A DNA stretch of 64,000 nt from a virus. The DNA is taken from IMG/VR virus record IMGVR_UViG_3300029906_000002, positions 76,507 to 140,506 of that record; one strand, 5' to 3'. Below the pieces are notes generated by a model that was not told the DNA's origin, did no database searches, and saw only the letters and a program-made list of their open reading frames with translations. Shown here piece after piece: positions 8,378 through 46,269 of the stretch. The translations under genes were made by a program, and so were the position numbers. Numbering within the stretch: position 1 is the stretch's first letter; the number at the start of each line of letters is the position of its first letter.

Positions 8378-8907
8378 TTAGCTGTATGGTAAAAACGATA
8401 GGATCATTATATATCTTTCTTCCCGTGGTTCAAAATAGGTATCTTCTATAAATGAAGGATATAATGTCTGATTATTTATAATTGTGAATGTACTTCCAGA
8501 TGGCATTTCAAGAGAGTAACCAGTACCTTGTGTATATGATTCATTGTTAGTTATGGTATCAAGGTTTAAATCAAGTTGAAAATTAATAACAAACTCTGCA
8601 TCAGCAAAAGGAAATCCATGAGTATAATAGGATATTGAAGTCTGTATAATATTATCATCACGTAATTCAATAATATCATTAGTCTGTACTGATTTTGTTG
8701 CTTCATAAACATACCCTAATTCATCACGCAGAATTTCGGTCATCATTGTACCAACCTGTAAGTCGGTTTCTTTTAAGTTGTACAAAACATTACACCCTTT
8801 GTATATATCAAAAGCAGGCGTAAATATTATATACTTTATTCCGTTTTTAAGGTTAGCGTACTGCCCCCCCCCATTACCATATCGTTGTATATTAATCTTT
8901 TACGCAT
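8378..8907 (-). pseudogene. Poly-G frameshifted gene (OFF state; 176 aa if G10)
   Basis: ATG 8907 MRKRLIYNDMVM then G9 (8864-8872) gives a 23-aa peptide ending at TAA; one extra G reads GGGQYANLKNGIKYIIFTPAFDIYKGCNVLYNLKETDL straight into ORF 8378-8785. Confidence 0.8.
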
Positions 8908-8914
8908 ATAGATT

Positions 8915-9865
8915 TTACTTTACACGAATAAATGCACGAACATAATTGTTTTTGTCCTTATTGTAGTTATAGACGAAGCCACCGTACGTGCCAACAAAAC
9001 AAGCTTCTGTATTATTGTACTCCGTAGAAGACCAATAGCTGTCGCGCAACTCTACTCCAACGGACGAACCATACGCTGTACGCATTTTGTTTATTGCCTC
9101 ATTTATTTTATTGAAAGGAGGCATTATGTAACCTAATTCACCACAAGCAGGCAAATACCAATCACCTTGTTGAGTACCTTCGGTATGAAACATATCACAG
9201 CATGAAGCAGCAGGATAATCAGCTTCGGTTGTCGCATCAGGTTTCCATGAATTATAATCCTTAGTTCCTCTTTGCGTTATTATTTTTGCTGTATTTCCGA
9301 TTCCATCAAAGTCAGCTAACACATTTCTTGATGAAGAAGGTGAGGAGGTTTGATAATACCCAGGATTTCTACTTCCGTCAGTCAAATATGGCGATGGAAT
9401 ATAAGGCGATGAATGATAAAATGCATCCGTATCATGAGTGCATTGTGTACCGTTAAATCTATCACTGGGTAAATAACCAATAGTATCTTCACCTGTTGGA
9501 ATACCATTTGATGTGTTACCAGTAGGTACTCGGTCTAAATTAGGTAATCCTGAGATATCAGTACCATATCTTCCCCAATACATATATTGTTTAGATATAC
9601 TGCCTATTGAAGGTGTATCACAACTCATAGTCTTCAAACTCATCACCCCGCAAGAACCGTCACCATAAACATCGTGATAACCAGGCACAACTGCAATACC
9701 AATAGGTGTATATCTGTCAACTGGATAGGTTCCTACACTCCATGTATCACCATTAGCAATTATCAGACTATCATTTGTCTTATCATAAAAACATATATCA
9801 CAAGCTTTTGATTCACTTGGATTTATACTACCTCCGCTTGTTACTTGCAAAATCCTTCTTCTCAT
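8915..9865 (-). CDS. Putative receptor-binding protein with CLec/DUF1566-like DGR-target C-terminus
   Basis: 316 aa; DFDGIGNTAKII, GDWYLPACGEL and terminal YWSSTEY...YNYNKDKNNYVRAFIRV motifs typical of DGR targets; MRRRIL..GG leader. Confidence 0.75.
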   Translation of the reverse strand: MRRRILQVTSGGSINPSESKACDICFYDKTNDSLIIANGDTWSVGTYPVDRYTPIGIAVVPGYHDVYGDGSCGVMSLKTMSCDTPSIGSISKQYMYWGRYGTDISGLPNLDRVPTGNTSNGIPTGEDTIGYLPSDRFNGTQCTHDTDAFYHSSPYIPSPYLTDGSRNPGYYQTSSPSSSRNVLADFDGIGNTAKIITQRGTKDYNSWKPDATTEADYPAASCCDMFHTEGTQQGDWYLPACGELGYIMPPFNKINEAINKMRTAYGSSVGVELRDSYWSSTEYNNTEACFVGTYGGFVYNYNKDKNNYVRAFIRVK

Positions 9866-9942
9866 AAAAAAAGAGCTTTATAGTTTCCTACAAAGCTCAT
9901 TACAAATTATCAAATCAAATCAAGCATGAAGAATAATTTCTA

Positions 9943-11009: not shown

Positions 11010-11708
11010 TTAAGATTGTGCTGCGAATCTGATATAACGCTTAGAGTTGTCGAACACAACATTGATTTCGGCGTAACCGTTTGCAGGAACAGTAAGCGAA
11101 TCGCCAGACATGTTCACATAAGAAGAAGTGGTCGGCATGGATACTGTTCTGTCAGAGCCTGAAGAGTTACGCACAATAATGTGCAATTCCTTACCATCAC
11201 CAGGATTGTTAGCTACAGTGAAGCTCTGGTTCGACGAGATGGTAGCAATGACCAATCGCTTGCTGGTTGCCACGTTAGACAGACTTGTTGTCGTGTTGTG
11301 ACCCGTGTTACGATTGTAGTCAGCAACCGCATTAGAAGTACCGGATGGAACAGTGGGAATGCTCGGCTTGTTAGACAAGTCGTTGTAACTTCCCGATGTA
11401 GCTACTGTAGCCAATCCGCTTACTTGTGCAGCAGTATGGGTATGACTGGCAGCGGCCTTACCATCCAACTGGTCCTGCAAATTAGTAACGTCAGAAATAG
11501 CATGGGTATGTACTGTATCAGCCTTACCAGCCAATCCTTGTGTCAACTCTTCTTGGGTAGCGAAATCTCCGCTTGCTCCATTCGAGTTGTGGTTTAAGAC
11601 ACCAAAAACATAGGTGTCGCCTGTGTCTGTACATTGATAAACCCCTCCCTGGTGGGTTTCAGCAACGTAAGAAGCCGCAGGTCCTTTGTAAAAATTCACG
11701 TATGCCAT
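11010..11708 (-). CDS. Short tail fibre with HxH phage tail repeats
   Basis: KADTVHTHAISDVTNLQDQLDGKAAASHTHTAAQV and ATVATSGSYNDLSNKP motifs. Confidence 0.75.
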   Translation of the reverse strand: MAYVNFYKGPAASYVAETHQGGVYQCTDTGDTYVFGVLNHNSNGASGDFATQEELTQGLAGKADTVHTHAISDVTNLQDQLDGKAAASHTHTAAQVSGLATVATSGSYNDLSNKPSIPTVPSGTSNAVADYNRNTGHNTTTSLSNVATSKRLVIATISSNQSFTVANNPGDGKELHIIVRNSSGSDRTVSMPTTSSYVNMSGDSLTVPANGYAEINVVFDNSKRYIRFAAQS

Positions 11709-13068: not shown

Positions 13069-14733
13069 TCAATCGCCTTCGTACCATTCCAGAGAAGCCT
13101 CCAGAGCATCCAGGGCAGTCTTCAAAGCCTTACCTTGTTCGGCAGACAGAACCTTGTCAGTGCCACCCGTAGTCAGGTCGTTAACGATATCGGCATCTTG
13201 CAAAGCGGCTGCGGCGGCGGCAGCAGCTTCTTTTGCACGGGCCTCAACCTTAGCGATAGCCTGGTTCAGATTGTCGGTTGCGGCAACATCTGCGGCAGTA
13301 CCGGCAGCATAACCAGTAGCCAAGATATCAGCACCGTTCAGTACGGGGTTCGTATTGATAGCCTTGCCGTTTACAGTGTAAGCTTTGATAGCCGCGATTT
13401 CAGTGGCGTTGTCGTCAGCCTTCTTCTCAACCTTACCGATAGCTTCAGCGATAGTATCACCGGGCTGTACATCGGGATTTTCAGGAGCGGACGGCTTTTC
13501 GTAATCGGTAATACTACCAGCACCTGCATCAGGCTTGGGAGCTTCACCCGGCTCAGAAGGATCAATACCGGCAGCAGTTGCCAGAGCGTTCAATACCTTC
13601 TTATCCTTCAACGACATTACACCGTCAGCAGTTTCCGTAGCAACGGGAATGGTCACATTGCCAGCAGTGGGGCTGATAGCGGAACCAGTGCCCGGAGTAA
13701 CGGTCTTGACAACTTCTGCATCCAGAGCTGCGATAGCGTCAGCATTCGTCTTAACCTGTGTGTCGATAGCTGCAACGGCACCAGCCAAAGAACCGGCTTC
13801 GCTGCCATAGTTCAAACCAGGCAGAGTAGCATCAACATCACCCAGGTCCTCGCTCAATTCAGGAACGGAAGGAGTATCACCACCTGCGCCAGTCAAACCA
13901 GCCAAAGCAGCCTTATCAGCAGCCGACATCAAACCTGCGGCAGAATCCGTAGCAGCAGGAATGATAACCGTACCACCGTCGCCAGTAGAGAAAATGTTTG
14001 TAGCACCTGCCTTATCAGAATCCGTAAAGGCAATAGTGATGTTCGTTGCAGACGGAGTAACCGCGCCAAAACCTGTTACAACAGTCGTTGGAACGCTGTT
14101 CAAGGCATCGCGGTTGGCCTTACCCTTGGAGCCTTCGTAAGCAGTACCAGCTACTTCACCGAGAACGATAGAGGGAGAAACCTCTGCCATGTTGGCACCA
14201 TCCCAACGGTACAGCACGTTCGTGCGGCCTTGGTCGTCGGCACCACGACGGTTGTACAGAACCTGAGTTTGCGGGTCAGTCTCAACCCATACGCCTTCTG
14301 CGCCTTCGATGATCTTCTTAGATGTACTGTTGAAATAGAACTTGCCTTCCTCAACAGGATCGGGGTTAGCATCAACGAAGTTCTCCAAGCCGAGCACGTG
14401 GCCGATAACGCCGGAAACCAGATCGCTATTGATCTTGCCGTTTTCATCGAACAGCTTCGTGTTCAGAGCTTCAATCAGACCGTTCAGCGTCTTACCCTGC
14501 TCAGCGGACAAAGCCTTGTCTGCGCCGCCAGTCGTCAAATCATTGACGATAGCTGCCTGGATCAGCTCGCCGATGCTTTCAGCGTCTTGGCTGCAATCGA
14601 AATAAATTCCGTGAGTGTAAATCTGCTTGGTATCCTGAATAAACACGATGGTGGTTTGGGGGATACCAGGAGTGGTCAAGGCAGTTTGGAAAGCTGCCAG
14701 TGTCTTAAAATAAGCAAAGCGATTACTAATCAT
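13069..14733 (-). CDS. Tail fibre protein
   Basis: 554 aa Ala/Gly-rich; IVNDLTTGG.DK.LSAEQGK at both ends; IPAATDSAAGLMSAADK repeats. Confidence 0.8.
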   Translation of the reverse strand: MISNRFAYFKTLAAFQTALTTPGIPQTTIVFIQDTKQIYTHGIYFDCSQDAESIGELIQAAIVNDLTTGGADKALSAEQGKTLNGLIEALNTKLFDENGKINSDLVSGVIGHVLGLENFVDANPDPVEEGKFYFNSTSKKIIEGAEGVWVETDPQTQVLYNRRGADDQGRTNVLYRWDGANMAEVSPSIVLGEVAGTAYEGSKGKANRDALNSVPTTVVTGFGAVTPSATNITIAFTDSDKAGATNIFSTGDGGTVIIPAATDSAAGLMSAADKAALAGLTGAGGDTPSVPELSEDLGDVDATLPGLNYGSEAGSLAGAVAAIDTQVKTNADAIAALDAEVVKTVTPGTGSAISPTAGNVTIPVATETADGVMSLKDKKVLNALATAAGIDPSEPGEAPKPDAGAGSITDYEKPSAPENPDVQPGDTIAEAIGKVEKKADDNATEIAAIKAYTVNGKAINTNPVLNGADILATGYAAGTAADVAATDNLNQAIAKVEARAKEAAAAAAAALQDADIVNDLTTGGTDKVLSAEQGKALKTALDALEASLEWYEGD

Positions 14734-30636: not shown

Positions 30637-31548
30637 CTATTTATCGTATAATGACATATCATTAAATACTCTCCTCACGTCTTCTGGAACTTCGTTTGGT
30701 TGTATTCTTTGATTGTTGTAGTAATAATATCCTTGTCCAAATCCTGCATATTCAGGAGCGTAGTATCTGTAATTATTCATCTCGTAATTCCATCTTCCTC
30801 TTCTTACTCCTCCTTTGCTTTTTATCTCATCAGGAGATAACGCTTTGTATGCACTATGCGATTTAAACGCTCCAGATATATCAAGAGGAAGTGTTCTTGG
30901 GTCTACTGATGTTTCACGTACTTGCCCCCCCCCACGATCTATTTCGTGGGTGTAAGGTTTCCCTACGTGACCAAATCCTCCGTTGTTATACATATCGCGC
31001 ATAGCCTGATATGTATTTTTACCAAACTTGCCATCGGTAGCTACGCCAAGGTATTTCTGTATGGCAGTCACATCATCAATGCTATCGACTTTTCCAAGAT
31101 CATAACCAAGTTCTTTTGACAAATTAGCAAGCCTGCTATTTGCTTCATTGAGCCACCACTTTCTATCGCTTGCAACTTTAGCGGCTTTCTGACCGAATCT
31201 CTGTATTTCAGCATTGATATTACCCATTACTGGAGACGGAGCATTGTCAATCGTTGCGGCATCATCCAGTCTTTGTGTAACAGCTTGACCAGGTAGCGGT
31301 ACATTAGGAGAAGTAGGTTCGGGACGATTGGCTTCTGCTCGCTTAGCAGCTTCTTGAAGAAACAAATTCTTATTGGCAGCAAACTGTTGACGCATCCTAT
31401 CGTTGTTGATCTGTGCGTTACCTCTCCAATCCTTGCCATACAAACTCGACATCGTATTGTCGAACAAAGCATTTTGTGCAAATACCTCTCTCCCCTTCTC
31501 CGCTCTTCTTGCTGCCCTTCTGGCCCGTATATTGTCAAACAAACCCAT
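30637..31548 (-). CDS. Protein with peptidoglycan-binding-like motif and in-frame G9 tract
   Basis: DVTAIQKYLGVATDGKFGKNTYQAM resembles PG_binding_1; G9 at 30925-30933. Confidence 0.65.
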   Translation of the reverse strand: MGLFDNIRARRAARRAEKGREVFAQNALFDNTMSSLYGKDWRGNAQINNDRMRQQFAANKNLFLQEAAKRAEANRPEPTSPNVPLPGQAVTQRLDDAATIDNAPSPVMGNINAEIQRFGQKAAKVASDRKWWLNEANSRLANLSKELGYDLGKVDSIDDVTAIQKYLGVATDGKFGKNTYQAMRDMYNNGGFGHVGKPYTHEIDRGGGQVRETSVDPRTLPLDISGAFKSHSAYKALSPDEIKSKGGVRRGRWNYEMNNYRYYAPEYAGFGQGYYYYNNQRIQPNEVPEDVRRVFNDMSLYDK

Positions 31549-35081: not shown

Positions 35082-35867
35082 ATGGATAGAATCAAACTAA
35101 ATCTCGCTACTTACGAACCTGTGGACTTCCATATTCCAGAATCCACACCTGATGGATTGGATTATGAAGTTAGTCCACGTATGTTTGACTATGAACCATC
35201 GGAATACGAAGCAACGATAGATGAGCTTACCGATAGCGATGACGACCTGCCGGAAAGACAATCCGAATCATCGGATTCCCGTAACATCTATTCACAAATC
35301 AATCCTCAACTTGCTGAGGCTCTTCGCATACGACCCAAGCAAAAAGCAGCTGAATCAAGCGGACATGCTACGCCCGATTGGTTGTCGTCTACATCGCAGG
35401 TGTCCAAATGGAACAACCCTGTTTACTCTGGCGAATCATCCTGGGTAGCTATGATGAAGCAAGCTTACCGTAATGCGGGTATCACCAATAATGATACCTT
35501 ATCCATGCTTGTTTCACAAGATGCAATAGAATCAAGTTGGGGCAAGTCTGCGCAAGGATCGTTTAACTATGGTAACATCACTACCGGGCGCGGATACAAA
35601 GGCAAGTATGTAGTAGGTAGAGATAAGGATAAAAGTGGCAAGCCTATCACGCAATACTTCCGTGCATACGATTCTGTTGACGAGTATGTGAAGGATAAGG
35701 TTGCATTACTCAAGAGAAGCTATGACTTTACGGGCAACGAAACGCCTGATGAACTTATAAGCAAGCTGAATGGCAATAACCACAAGAAATACAGATACGC
35801 TGAATCCCCGGAATATTCACGACTATTAAAAGATGTATACCAGTCCTACAAAAGAAAGAAATACTAA
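35082..35867 (+). CDS. GH73-family glucosaminidase/muramidase with acidic N-terminal extension
   Basis: AIESSWG...FNYGNI...FRAYDSVDEY...YAESPEY. Confidence 0.8.
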   Translation: MDRIKLNLATYEPVDFHIPESTPDGLDYEVSPRMFDYEPSEYEATIDELTDSDDDLPERQSESSDSRNIYSQINPQLAEALRIRPKQKAAESSGHATPDWLSSTSQVSKWNNPVYSGESSWVAMMKQAYRNAGITNNDTLSMLVSQDAIESSWGKSAQGSFNYGNITTGRGYKGKYVVGRDKDKSGKPITQYFRAYDSVDEYVKDKVALLKRSYDFTGNETPDELISKLNGNNHKKYRYAESPEYSRLLKDVYQSYKRKKY

Positions 35868-39524: not shown

Positions 39525-39788
39525 ATGAATAAAAGAACAAGAAGATTGGCGAGATTCATAGACAACGACCTGAATATGATACTGTTCATCTGCATAGTCA
39601 TATCCATTGTGTCCATGTTTGTTTATTTGATGATTTACAGTTACTATAACCTGTTTACATCTGGCTATACGCCAGAATGGTGCAATATCCTTCCTGCCGC
39701 ATCAGTATGCCTCGGATTCTCGTCCATAATCATGAAGACCATAGCTTGTACAGTTCGGGAAATCATCAAAAGTGTTTATCATTTCTGA
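39525..39788 (+). CDS. Small two-TM membrane protein
   Basis: MNKRTRR... basic start then two hydrophobic stretches. Confidence 0.55.
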   Translation: MNKRTRRLARFIDNDLNMILFICIVISIVSMFVYLMIYSYYNLFTSGYTPEWCNILPAASVCLGFSSIIMKTIACTVREIIKSVYHF

Positions 39789-40606
39789 CCTCTACCTTGC
39801 GATACAAACCGTTTTCTTTCAGGATTCCAAGTGTTCGCATAGATATCATACGAAGCAACCTTCTCTCGTCTGTCCTTGGCCCGTTGAGGTGTATGCTCCA
39901 GTATGGCTTCCTTCTGGGCATCCGCATCACCGGCAACTACCGCTCGTGCCCATTTGTCGAATATCGGCCTGATATTGCCTCTATTGTATCTTGCTTGGGC
40001 ACCCATCAATCTTACTCCCTGACTGATGGTATCAGGTCTATCAGTATAGCCGCTATCCACCAGTTGCTTCATCAGCATACGGTCGTTGTCGCGCATTAGA
40101 GTAACCGCCAAGTCGTGAGCCTCACTCACGGGTATGCCTTCCTTCTCAGCACGTTTTCTTAGCTTGATACCGTCATCATTGGTACGAACATCAATGCCCG
40201 GACCAAAAGCCCGTGAACCGTCAGAATAAGGGAAATAACGGCCATTGCGAAGTCCTACGCTGTGTGGATTCTCAAGATTCTTGATAACCCGCAAAGTCTG
40301 TACATACTCAAGCGGCTTGACCTTGCTTAGGTTCTCACGACCTTTTTCTTTGTCAACAGTTTTCTTTTCAGTAGATGGGTTTATCCAATTATTAGCCATG
40401 TCTTTCAAGTCGTTTACATGGCTTATTAATGAAGGTAAGGAAGCCATTCCAGGGAGCATAGGGAGTATTTTGGCTGCTATGTCGTATAACTCGCCATTAG
40501 CCTTTCCTCCATTGTCAAAACGTCTGGGTTTCTTGTTTAACCGTTGAGAGAAGTAAGCACTACCAATCCAATCAATTAATTTATTTGCTTCCTTATTTTG
40601 TTTCAT
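39779..40606 (-). CDS. Putative lysozyme-like (muramidase) protein
   Basis: LENP...YFPYSDGSRAFGPGID resembles the T4-lysozyme/pesticin catalytic loop; N-terminal RFDNGG motif. Confidence 0.5.
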   Translation of the reverse strand: MKQNKEANKLIDWIGSAYFSQRLNKKPRRFDNGGKANGELYDIAAKILPMLPGMASLPSLISHVNDLKDMANNWINPSTEKKTVDKEKGRENLSKVKPLEYVQTLRVIKNLENPHSVGLRNGRYFPYSDGSRAFGPGIDVRTNDDGIKLRKRAEKEGIPVSEAHDLAVTLMRDNDRMLMKQLVDSGYTDRPDTISQGVRLMGAQARYNRGNIRPIFDKWARAVVAGDADAQKEAILEHTPQRAKDRREKVASYDIYANTWNPERKRFVSQGRGQK

Positions 40607-40683
40607 TTGAAATCAATCTTATTGAAACAAAATTAATTCTGAGTTATTGTTAGTTGGGCATATTAAATAGAATAAAGCTATGT

Positions 40684-41178
40684 TTATGGATTTGGAGGAA
40701 GATTGCTTTTAGAGAAATTGAATATTAATGTGGCTAAACTACCCATCCAACACCACACATAAGGGCATTTACCAGGTAGAATATACATACCAGTTATTTT
40801 TATATTTGAATCATTAGAACTAAGTTCATTGTCATTATTTTGCATTGTATTATTTGATTCAACTGGTTGCGGAATATACGAAAAGACAAGATCAGCTGTA
40901 TTTCCCATAATATCTTCACAGCGTATAGTTAATCCATAATCAAGTACGCTTTGAAATGTCAACGTACTTCCCTGATTATAGACATAGCTGTAATAATCAT
41001 TTTTGTATATAAATGTTGATGATGGGCCGTTTGAAAAAATATTTATTTTATTGATTATAGAATCATCCTGTGATTCAAATCGACCATACACAAAAATCAT
41101 TTGAATATTACTATCGAAACTCGGATATCCAGCTAACCCCCCCCCATTTTCAACAGTTTCAAGTAAGCGTCTACGCAT
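40684..41178 (-). CDS. Poly-G leader protein, ON state (164 aa)
   Basis: MRRRLLETVENGGG; G9 at 41137-41145 in frame. Confidence 0.85.
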   Translation of the reverse strand: MRRRLLETVENGGGLAGYPSFDSNIQMIFVYGRFESQDDSIINKINIFSNGPSSTFIYKNDYYSYVYNQGSTLTFQSVLDYGLTIRCEDIMGNTADLVFSYIPQPVESNNTMQNNDNELSSNDSNIKITGMYILPGKCPYVWCWMGSLATLIFNFSKSNLPPNP

Positions 41179-41206
41179 GAATAAACTTGTATTAAATAGG
41201 ATAAAA

Positions 41207-41695
41207 TTAGAAAATTAAGCCTGTTATATAAACCAGATTCTTGTTATCGTTATTCACAAGTAAAACTATACTAAATGAGACATTTGATTGCTCAATGCCA
41301 GGATTATTTACTGAAAAATTCAATTCATGGTTCGGAACCATAGAATCGGAATGATCTACTACTTCCAGTGACATGACACTGCTATTATAAGTTTTGTCAA
41401 TTATTTCAAGTTGGTCGGCATCATTATGGAAAATAACTATTTGCATAAGCGGAGATAAGCCTGTTAGTTGCTTATCGTATTGTTCTATCGTTACCAGAAA
41501 TCTGTTACTTTCTTGAAATGCGTAGATTTGGCCGGTTCTCGTATAATCTTCCGTGAATATCCGATGCGAATAATCTTGTATACTGTAATTCCAATACACT
41601 CTTTCGTATCCTTCCGATGAGAATTGCAGGGTTATACTACTTATTATCTGGTCGATATTTGCCCCCCCCCCATTTCCAAAGAGACGCTTGCGCAT
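41207..41695 (-). CDS. Poly-G leader protein, ON state (162 aa, beta-rich)
   Basis: MRKRLFGNGGGA; G10 at 41662-41671 in frame. Confidence 0.85.
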   Translation of the reverse strand: MRKRLFGNGGGANIDQIISSITLQFSSEGYERVYWNYSIQDYSHRIFTEDYTRTGQIYAFQESNRFLVTIEQYDKQLTGLSPLMQIVIFHNDADQLEIIDKTYNSSVMSLEVVDHSDSMVPNHELNFSVNNPGIEQSNVSFSIVLLVNNDNKNLVYITGLIF

Positions 41696-41725
41696 AAGAA
41701 ATGAAGTGTTGGAAACAAAATTAAA

Positions 41726-42081
41726 TTATTGAACTGTATTTGGGAAAAACGAATGATAAGCTTCTACTACTTGATTTGATAAGCTTGACATACTATTAAC
41801 ATTTAACATAAACATCATAGATCCGGTACCCGTATAAGCAATCATGTATGAGCTATCAAGTAAATACATTATATTATTCAATAAAAGCACGTACGCAACC
41901 AATATTACATTATGATCGGTTTCATATACTAAGCATCTTGTAATACAACCTTCCGTACAATTAGTGGGAGTGATATTTCGTAATGGTCCTTCAATAGAAT
42001 TTACAATAGGATAACCCATGAATTCAGTATCATTAGGACCAATTACCTCCCCCCCCCTATCATTGTTCTTCTTTCAAACAT
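41726..42081 (-). pseudogene. Poly-G frameshifted gene (OFF state; 118 aa if G10)
   Basis: ATG 42081 MFERRTMI then G9 (42049-42057) gives MFERRTMIGGGR*; one extra G reads GGGEVIGPNDTEF into MGYPIV ORF 41726-42019. Confidence 0.8.
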
Positions 42082-42334
42082 TATCTTGCTTCGTTTCGTT
42101 ATACTTCTTATTTCCCTTGAAAGCATCAATGCTTTTGGGTATCGTATCCAGACCGAGCATCGAGAACACGCAGATAGTAAACACCTCTGCAATATCTGGA
42201 ATACTTCGATCTATCACTACCACATACGTTATCCAGATGATGATGGCAACCATCCCCATCAATCCTCCCACACGCTTAGTCGATATGCCAGATTGTGCGG
42301 TGAACATCTGCCGTATGAATGAAGTGAATTTCAT
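42074..42334 (-). CDS. Small two-TM holin-like membrane protein
   Basis: ISTKRVGGLMG plus two hydrophobic helices and charged tail. Confidence 0.65.
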   Translation of the reverse strand: MKFTSFIRQMFTAQSGISTKRVGGLMGMVAIIIWITYVVVIDRSIPDIAEVFTICVFSMLGLDTIPKSIDAFKGNKKYNETKQDNV

Positions 42335-45759: not shown

Positions 45760-46269
45760 ATGTAGGTACGGGCGCGATAAAAGGATAGGGTAGTTTATAT
45801 GCCCCCCCTATACCAAATGGACGGGCAAGGATATAATGAGGCTAAACAAGGCTGTAGGAAATGAGATTTTATTGCGAGGTAATAGTTGGTATATCTGAAA
45901 TGAGAAAGTCTCGGAAATAAAAGGAATTGTAGGGAATTGAGGCGATTAGTAGTTTTGAGGCAGATAGGTTGGTATTCTTGCGATAGAGTATGTCTGCTTA
46001 GTAAGCGGAAGTGGTAGACGTAGTAAGCATGACAATACAAGATGCATGGTTACTTTACTGTTGGTTATACCGGCTTTTCAAAACTGACTGATATAGCTAC
46101 TTGTCTTGTCCTATTCCGCTCCACCTACATTCTAATCTCATTCCCCTTCTAAGTAGACAGTCATAGTCAAATAAGCGACAAGACTAAGTGATATTGATTA
46201 GAAAAAAAATATAGGTTCTTTCCGAGCGGGCTGGTACTATATATTTTCACACCCCCTCCGGGTGTGCCG

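Follow-up and report, generated by a model that had tools for sequence, protein, structure and literature searches.

A three-gene cassette with early poly-G tracts

The 64,000-nucleotide (nt) stretch of viral DNA analysed here, which we call the window, comes from IMG/VR virus record IMGVR_UViG_3300029906_000002 and carries on its minus strand a cassette of three consecutive genes, each with a run of nine or ten G residues close to its 5' end. In all three genes, the tract (a run of C on the plus strand) falls within codons 9-14, behind a short basic leader and in front of a longer body. Gene 1 (41726-42081) has the leader MFERRTMI, a G9 tract at 42049-42057 and a body of 106 amino acids (aa). 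It is one base out of frame and hence OFF, with a stop after 12 codons, and frame analysis indicates that one added G would produce a 118-aa protein. Gene 2 (41207-41695; leader MRKRLFGN, G10 at 41662-41671) and gene 3 (40684-41178; leader MRRRLLETVEN, G9 at 41137-41145) both have 150-aa bodies that are in frame, or ON, giving predicted products of 162 and 164 aa, respectively. The cassette is AT-rich, with a GC content at 41001-42000 of 0.33 compared to 0.42-0.43 overall, and neither BLASTP nor profile-profile comparison with hhalign detected any similarity between the three bodies. An initial annotation had described the locus as three consecutive AT-rich genes of 118, 162 and 164 aa in the state OFF-ON-ON, unrelated beyond their leaders, and this description holds in its coordinates, tracts, composition and frames.

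The cassette occupies a slot with conserved borders. Upstream lies a gene for an 86-aa small membrane protein (42074-42334, minus strand), which had been called holin-like and whose stop codon does overlap the ATG of gene 1, as first proposed, within GATAATGTTTGA. This protein has a strong hydrophobic segment at residues 21-46, a weaker second segment and a charged C-terminal tail, and Pfam, PHROGs and NCBIfam gave no family match for it. When we checked for a holin context, the neighbouring 275-aa protein showed no lysin match, and the only recognised peptidoglycan hydrolase in the genome is encoded at 35082-35867, on the strand opposite to the cassette. The gene for this 275-aa basic protein (39779-40606, minus strand), which also has no family match in Pfam, PHROGs or NCBIfam, forms the downstream border and adjoins the slot in all the relatives examined. 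An octamer resembling a Bacteroidota-type -7 promoter box, TAATTTTG, is found at 41716-41723 on the minus strand, 21 nt upstream of the gene 2 ATG. It recurs 22 nt upstream of the 275-aa gene (40628-40635), as well as upstream of cassette genes and their scars in three related genomes (L011, L010 and L014), and is not enriched window-wide. Each cassette module may thus carry its own promoter, if the octamer functions as its sequence suggests.

The window corresponds to positions 76507-140506 of a 168,622-bp contig from a chicken-gut metagenome. Both contig ends repeat, the IMG/VR record is classed as linear and CheckV estimates its completeness at 93%. An open reading frame (ORF) at 522-1961 matches the major capsid family PF23898 (Crass_capsid) with an E value of 5.8e-13 and 48.5 bits (cut-off 27 bits), and weak matches to the tail-ring families CrAss_Ring_1 and CrAss_Ring_2, below cut-off, lie just upstream of the window. 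The genome is therefore assigned to the crAss-like phages (Crassvirales), a placement made from the capsid-family match rather than from a phylogeny.

The poly-G tracts are not a product of chance. The genome contains six G/C runs of at least nine, when 0.15 would be expected under an order-1 Markov model and 0 under an order-3 model. Run lengths in the window are bimodal, with a single run of 7, none of 8 and five of 9-10. All nine runs of at least seven that we inspected are G on the sense strand of local genes, and in six of these nine cases the run falls inside a gene's first 40 codons. Moreover, GGG is the rarest glycine codon, accounting for 6.5% of Gly codons in 73 long ORFs. The initial view that such tracts would be unlikely by chance, GGG being rare here, is thus borne out.

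Tract hypermutability and module exchange between strains

Related contigs were gathered through exact-protein look-ups, and variation within samples was assessed from contigs, not reads. These comparisons show that the tracts mutate far faster than the sequence surrounding them. Over 14,345 aligned bp, the related genomes L003 and L004, from two runs, differ by one substitution and three indels, and all three indels are in poly-G tracts. These differences (13 vs. 11 in an extra cassette gene, gene A, 10 vs. 9 in gene 2 and 15 vs. 13 in gene 3) affect three of the five poly-G tracts. Similarly, when L001 is compared to L002, the window strain from another sample, 10,002 bp show one mismatch and one indel, which is G7 vs. 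G8 in an intergenic tract at 45802-45808 (minus strand), downstream of a 315-aa gene. This intergenic tract, G7 in the window, is G8 in L002 and L007 and G9 in L003, L004 and L010, and may be a promoter-spacing or RNA-level switch.

Variation was also detected within a single sequencing run. In run X6, Logan contigs covering the cassette include +1 and -1 alleles of the gene 2 tract, at depths of 22.8 and 50.1; the main contigs stop inside this tract, and minor alleles account for ~6-30% of depth. The gene 1 tract differs between runs X3 and X6, and two contigs from separate assemblies (L012 and L013) end exactly inside it. Among relatives, the gene 2 tract has lengths of 10, 10, 9, 13 and 10, while the gene 3 tract is G15 (OFF) or G13 (ON), and G8, G10 or G9 in front of a diverged body, gene 3 alleles being only 32-36% identical. 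Gene 1 has G8 or G9 and is OFF in six genomes, and has G10 and is ON in L011. Proteins in the gene 3 cluster are 138, 151, 153, 154 and 165 aa long and those in the gene 2 cluster 154, 155 and 163 aa, lengths that are expected from other tract lengths; members that start with MGGG, MGG or an internal Met likewise fit other tract lengths in front of the same body. The locus therefore displays a slippable repeat within an ORF, length variation among near-clonal genomes and length changes that toggle a predicted full-length product, three of the features by which contingency loci are recognised.

As judged by frame analysis, seven related genomes show seven different combinations of states. In gene order, these are OFF-ON-ON in the window, ON-OFF-ON-OFF in L003, alt-OFF-OFF-ON in L004, ON-OFF-ON-alt in L005, OFF-ON-alt in L006, OFF-OFF-alt-OFF in L007 and ON-alt in L011, where alt denotes a body in frame only with an ATG that arises where AAT meets the first G of the tract. 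The content of the slot between the 86-aa and 275-aa genes is equally variable. It holds four genes in L003, L004, L005 and L007, in which the extra gene A has the leader MLEKRIQLA...FGN, three in the window and in L006, and two in L011. No cassette genes are present in L010, L014 and L015, where degenerate leader scars remain. In L007, an unrelated 173-aa body is found behind the gene 2 leader. Between L001 and L003, synonymous divergence (dS) is 0.08-0.15 in the cassette vs. 0.44-0.63 in the flanks, which points to recent exchange of alleles, those of the cassette being much younger than their flanks. These findings show that modules are gained, lost and exchanged between strains.

Ratios of nonsynonymous to synonymous divergence (dN/dS) for all the cassette genes are 0.13-0.55, which indicates that the bodies are real coding sequence, including that of the mostly OFF gene 1. 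The flanking genes have ratios of 0.02-0.17, so the cassette is 3-10 times less constrained. Individually, gene 1 is at 0.27-0.55 and gene 2 at 0.16-0.28, while the 86-aa gene is at 0.03-0.17 and the 275-aa gene at 0.02-0.14. On inspection, substitutions between the gene 1 tract and an internal ATG are synonymous in the ON frame. Two of the genomes with an empty slot, L014 (4169-5873) and L015 (877-2581), have resolvase and IS605-family TnpB genes directly upstream of the 86-aa gene.

The initial annotation had read the cassette as an eight-state switch array of exchangeable modules. Rather than being uniform, tract lengths vary both between near-identical genomes and within one run, and rather than being fixed and in frame across relatives, the cassette comprises 0, 2, 3 or 4 genes with bodies swapped or highly diverged. 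The unrelated body in L007, the scars in deleted slots and the low cassette dS all speak for exchangeable modules. One amendment concerns the number of states: the genes are independently ON or OFF, but an ATG made from AAT and the first G may turn each switch into a three-state one.

Leader-bearing genes elsewhere and the nature of the bodies

Across the whole genome, leader-plus-tract genes number at least five, the three of the cassette included. A fourth member (8378-8907, minus strand) has a MRKRLIYNDMVM leader, a G9 tract at 8864-8872 and a 161-aa body, and is OFF, one more G being needed. The same tract is G10, and the gene ON, in manure-metagenome runs X3, X4 and X6. In the strains from these three runs, the middle of the body consists of different, diverged sequence, with no change in length. 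Another gene, with the leader MRKRLIEN and a G7 tract, is found at genome position 68367 and is OFF. It lies between weak matches to tail-ring families 1 and 2 (L008:5737-8833, equivalent to 67.7-70.8 kb of the genome), as does a 381-aa gene ~1.4 kb upstream of it, which has G8 at codon 18, is ON and resembles viral ConA/LamG-like lectin proteins. A 403-aa gene has a G9 tract at codon 37. Since paralogues encode their leaders with different synonymous codons, the leader appears to be conserved as a peptide and not as DNA. Terminator-like hairpins followed by T runs are found directly upstream of the ATG of two leader-bearing genes (window 9866-9900 and genome ~68368-68400), which suggests that each of them is transcribed on its own.

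The same type of leader is found on a gene encoding a 316-aa lectin-like adhesin (8915-9865, minus strand; leader MRRRILQVTSGGS), which adjoins tail-fibre-like genes; tail-fibre repeats are encoded at 11010-11708 and 13069-14733. There is no tract in this gene because its Gly codons are GGA GGT. The protein matches Lcl_C (PF07603) with 28.9 bits, under the curated cut-off, and its predicted structure (pLDDT 69, pTM 0.73) is most similar to a Bacteroides ovatus fimbrial protein (4eps, Z 9.7), followed by Lcl_C (Z 5.0). Its 1340 homologues have either MRRRxL...GGG N-termini or longer alternative segments joined via GGGG, and in other phages this junction is a poly-G tract, in frame as G11 in L040 and out of frame as G8 in L042. 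In L011, a paralogue of the 316-aa gene resides in the cassette slot itself, with the leader MRRRLLENTGN and a G11 tract. Because lectin-like genes share the leader and the GGGG or poly-G junctions, the point where leader and Gly meet appears to be a boundary between modules of binding proteins displayed on the virion.

The 316-aa gene is itself variable. A second, lower-depth contig from run X2 covers 8946-9202, in the C-terminal part, with clustered differences and small indels at 9016-9202, and other strains have diverged replacements at 8946-9054 and 9397-9779. For this mosaic hypervariability, a diversity-generating retroelement (DGR) could be ruled out, as a search for reverse transcriptase (PF00078) gave no match anywhere in the 168.6-kb genome.

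Genes 1-3 have no family in PHROGs, Pfam or NCBIfam, a DNA search of the GenBank phage collection gave no match, and neither gene 3 nor the 275-aa protein had relatives in protein-pattern scans of IMG/VR. When the gene 3 family was searched exhaustively as a profile, it returned only its own three clusters plus marginal matches to Ig-like repeats (DUF11 and cadherin), which are leads only. The corresponding search with gene 2 returned six clusters, all from this lineage and none with a fused architecture, and profile-profile comparison detected no relation between the gene 2, gene 3 and lectin families. Structure prediction of the bodies, which the initial annotation had proposed, yielded poor models, for gene 3 in AlphaFold2 (pLDDT of 44, so that the model was not used for fold searches) and for genes 2 and 3 in the ESM Atlas. 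Genes 2 and 3 were ruled out as spanins or secreted proteins because they lack both a transmembrane-like hydrophobic segment and an N-terminus resembling a signal peptide; in gene 1, a single segment is moderately hydrophobic. Among the functions originally offered, adhesion gains indirect support from the leader on the lectin-like gene and from the poly-G-controlled paralogue in the L011 slot. For genes 1-3 themselves, the sequences make an adhesin or receptor-binding role a putative one, to which we would give slightly less than an even chance.

Two further tracts or leaders extend the picture. An in-frame G9 tract (30925-30933, minus strand) lies at about codon 205 of a 303-aa ORF (30637-31548) with a peptidoglycan-binding-like motif; in L003, an interrupted GAGGAGGG stands in place of the tract and the frame is broken there, with the downstream sequence still conserved. 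Searching IMG/VR with a leader-plus-tract DNA pattern gave 0 matches in its strict form and 20 in a relaxed form, mostly unrelated-looking. One of these 20 matches is on an IMG/VR viral sequence (L031; 144,745 bp, 47% GC) in which a 350-aa ORF begins with MRRRIQK followed by an in-frame G10, and which may represent another phage lineage with the leader-tract layout.

A candidate switch array, its rivals and its meaning

Taken together, these findings are best explained if the three genes are contingency loci of a crAss-like phage, with bodies that serve as accessory binding modules. We give this reading as a whole a probability of about 0.6, and consider its core, the poly-G switch mechanism, to be very probable. 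The host genome of the cassette would be that of a lytic-type, ~169-kb crAss-like phage of the chicken gut. Each module would consist of a probable promoter box of its own, a translated basic leader of 8-11 codons (MR[KR]RL... or M[FL]E[RK]R...), a Gly linker encoded by the poly-G tract and a small, fast-evolving and probably beta-rich body. Slipped-strand mispairing during replication of the phage DNA would alter tract length and thereby move the body in or out of the leader frame, while changes of 3 nt would only add or remove one Gly. With each gene switching independently, a single burst could contain as many as 8 expression states in the phage of the window, or 16 in the four-gene relatives. 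Where the tract follows AAT, an ATG made of AT and the first G could, in a second class of tract lengths, direct synthesis of a product without the leader. Leader and Gly linker together might attach the bodies to the virion, or present them on it, and switching might in this way diversify host or surface recognition against phase-variable Bacteroidota surfaces. A bolder version, which we find quite unlikely, is that the basic leader and Gly linker form a universal plug that docks small modules on the virion (tail or capsid), the tract being both switch and module junction, and modules being anchored, free (leaderless) or absent.

Several observations weigh against contingency loci with binding modules. 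Genes 1-3 lack a detectable family or fold, a leader of 8-11 residues would make a very short docking element, so that the virion role is a putative one, and the cassette is dispensable in L010, L014 and L015. Gene 1 is OFF in six of seven genomes, which is no different from the two in three expected by chance. Part of the within-run heterogeneity, which is read from contigs, may stem from slippage in PCR or sequencing. Lastly, at least ~7 kb separates the cassette from the closest structural-block genes, and its transcription unit, made up of small genes and close to a strand switch, would equally suit early or accessory genes.

This location is one reason to consider that the same poly-G switch might control intracellular cargo (anti-defence, host take-over or superinfection exclusion), with each protein helping in some hosts and being costly or defence-triggering in others, and random subsets providing a hedge. 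The unit starts near the strand switch, beside an Hc1-like gene and away from the tail module, the cassette is AT-rich, strain-variable and dispensable, and it has no structural-protein family match. Furthermore, contingency loci in T2 and T4 have been shown to serve defence evasion (10.1101/2025.10.21.683753). However, the leader is also present on the lectin-like adhesin gene and on the gene between the weak tail-ring matches, a lectin-type paralogue sits in the L011 slot and the weak leads for gene 3 point to Ig-like folds. Searches in Pfam, PHROGs and NCBIfam returned no known anti-defence family, although no PADLOC search was made. We therefore regard intracellular cargo as rather doubtful.

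Two other explanations do without an adaptive DNA switch. The tracts might be non-adaptive mutational hot spots in a decaying accessory island, frameshifts being the early stage of pseudogenisation, which would fit the empty or scarred slot of L010, L014 and L015, a gene 1 that is mostly OFF and the relaxed constraint compared to the flanks. We find this very improbable, as dN/dS is well under 1 even for gene 1, and paralogues, like alleles that are 32-57% identical, retain the tract at one and the same junction. Decay would also sit poorly with tracts that consist of the least used Gly codon, lie on the sense strand without exception and have bimodal lengths, and with ON, alternative-start and OFF length classes that are all populated. 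Alternatively, length differences might be homopolymer errors of sequencing or assembly, or might be of little consequence if some full-length protein is always made through slippage in transcription or frameshifting on the ribosome. Runs of G9-G15 are error-prone on Illumina, the data examined are contigs and RNA polymerase is known to slip on long homopolymers, which may make OFF alleles leaky. Yet tract positions agree between independent assemblies made with different assemblers in several studies (MEGAHIT-style k119, NODE-style and Logan contigs), consensus lengths are 2-5 nt apart (13 vs. 11, 15 vs. 13, 8 to 15) and minor alleles in X6 reach the share of depth given above. RNA-level slippage would add to DNA-level variation, not replace it. 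Errors or leaky expression as the whole explanation are thus very improbable.

The closest known counterpart of the proposed array is in the Fletchervirus phages of Campylobacter, for which the primary study of poly-G receptor-binding-protein genes is said to be that of Sorensen et al. (2021, Cell Rep 35:109214). Two later sources describe hypermutable poly-G tracts in these genes (PMC11959909; bioRxiv 10.1101/2025.10.21.683753). A 2025 review calls them "an exceptional case" of phage phase variation (PMC11959909), and a 2025 preprint lists only Fletchervirus, BPP-1 and PB1-like phages as earlier phage poly-G cases (bioRxiv 10.1101/2025.10.21.683753). Our literature search found no paper tying crAss-like phages to homopolymer switching. 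Both systems have G7-G11-type tracts in phage coding sequence, several per genome, that toggle expression and give mixed progeny, and both come from the poultry gut, with genes acting in host recognition there and maybe so here. In contrast to Fletchervirus, with which we found no sequence relationship (no PHROG or Pfam match), the host phylum here is presumably Bacteroidota, and the tract always marks the point where a short, conserved basic leader gives way to small bodies that are unrelated and interchangeable. The candidate array described here also resides in a variable slot and has a possible alternative ATG at the tract. On this comparison, the cassette is an analogue of the Fletchervirus system with a new layout, not a member of the same family.

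Other switching systems share some of these properties. Bacterial contingency loci, such as surface genes of Campylobacter, Neisseria and Haemophilus, also have a homopolymer near the 5' end of an ORF, are turned ON and OFF by frameshifts and generate combinatorial diversity through several independently switching loci. Here, however, the loci are virus-borne, and it is the replicating phage genome that would switch, so that diversity would arise within bursts and not in cell lineages. Gomez, Barrick and Waters reported contingency loci in the coliphages T2 and T4 in 2025 (bioRxiv 10.1101/2025.10.21.683753), where reversible polymerase-slippage frameshifts in phage genes likewise act as bet-hedging. 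Those loci are short runs (at least 6 bases) scattered in ordinary genes (agt, rIIA) and under-represented in tail-fibre genes (10.1101/2025.10.21.683753), whereas the tracts here are long (G9-G15) and precede hypervariable cassette genes as part of a dedicated leader-plus-linker design. Should the bodies prove to be adhesins, the invertible tail fibres of Mu (Gin) and P1 (Cin) and the DGR of BPP-1 would be similar in producing stochastic virions with alternative host-binding proteins, and DGRs target folds of the type seen in the lectin-like C-terminus of the 316-aa paralogue. Unlike in these systems, no recombinase is associated with the cassette and there is no reverse transcriptase; the proposed mechanism is frameshifting, not inversion or mutagenic retrohoming.

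The leader-tract-body layout has practical consequences for the study of uncultured phages. Gene callers mis-annotate leader-tract genes, which appear truncated, missing or with internal-ATG starts, and assemblies break at poly-G tracts, while consensus genomes mask population structure. The layout itself offers a route to unknown host-interaction genes in such phages. Bacteroidota evade crAss-like phages by phase-varying their surface polysaccharides. A stochastic switch array in the phage, if confirmed, would be the viral counter-move and would help to explain the lasting coexistence of both partners in the gut. Were the universal plug to exist as well, a single genome would give rise to virions that carry many different sets of surface modules, the viral equivalent of the phase-variable capsules found on its Bacteroidota hosts. 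More generally, such an array would make contingency loci a general phage strategy that extends beyond the phages of Campylobacter.

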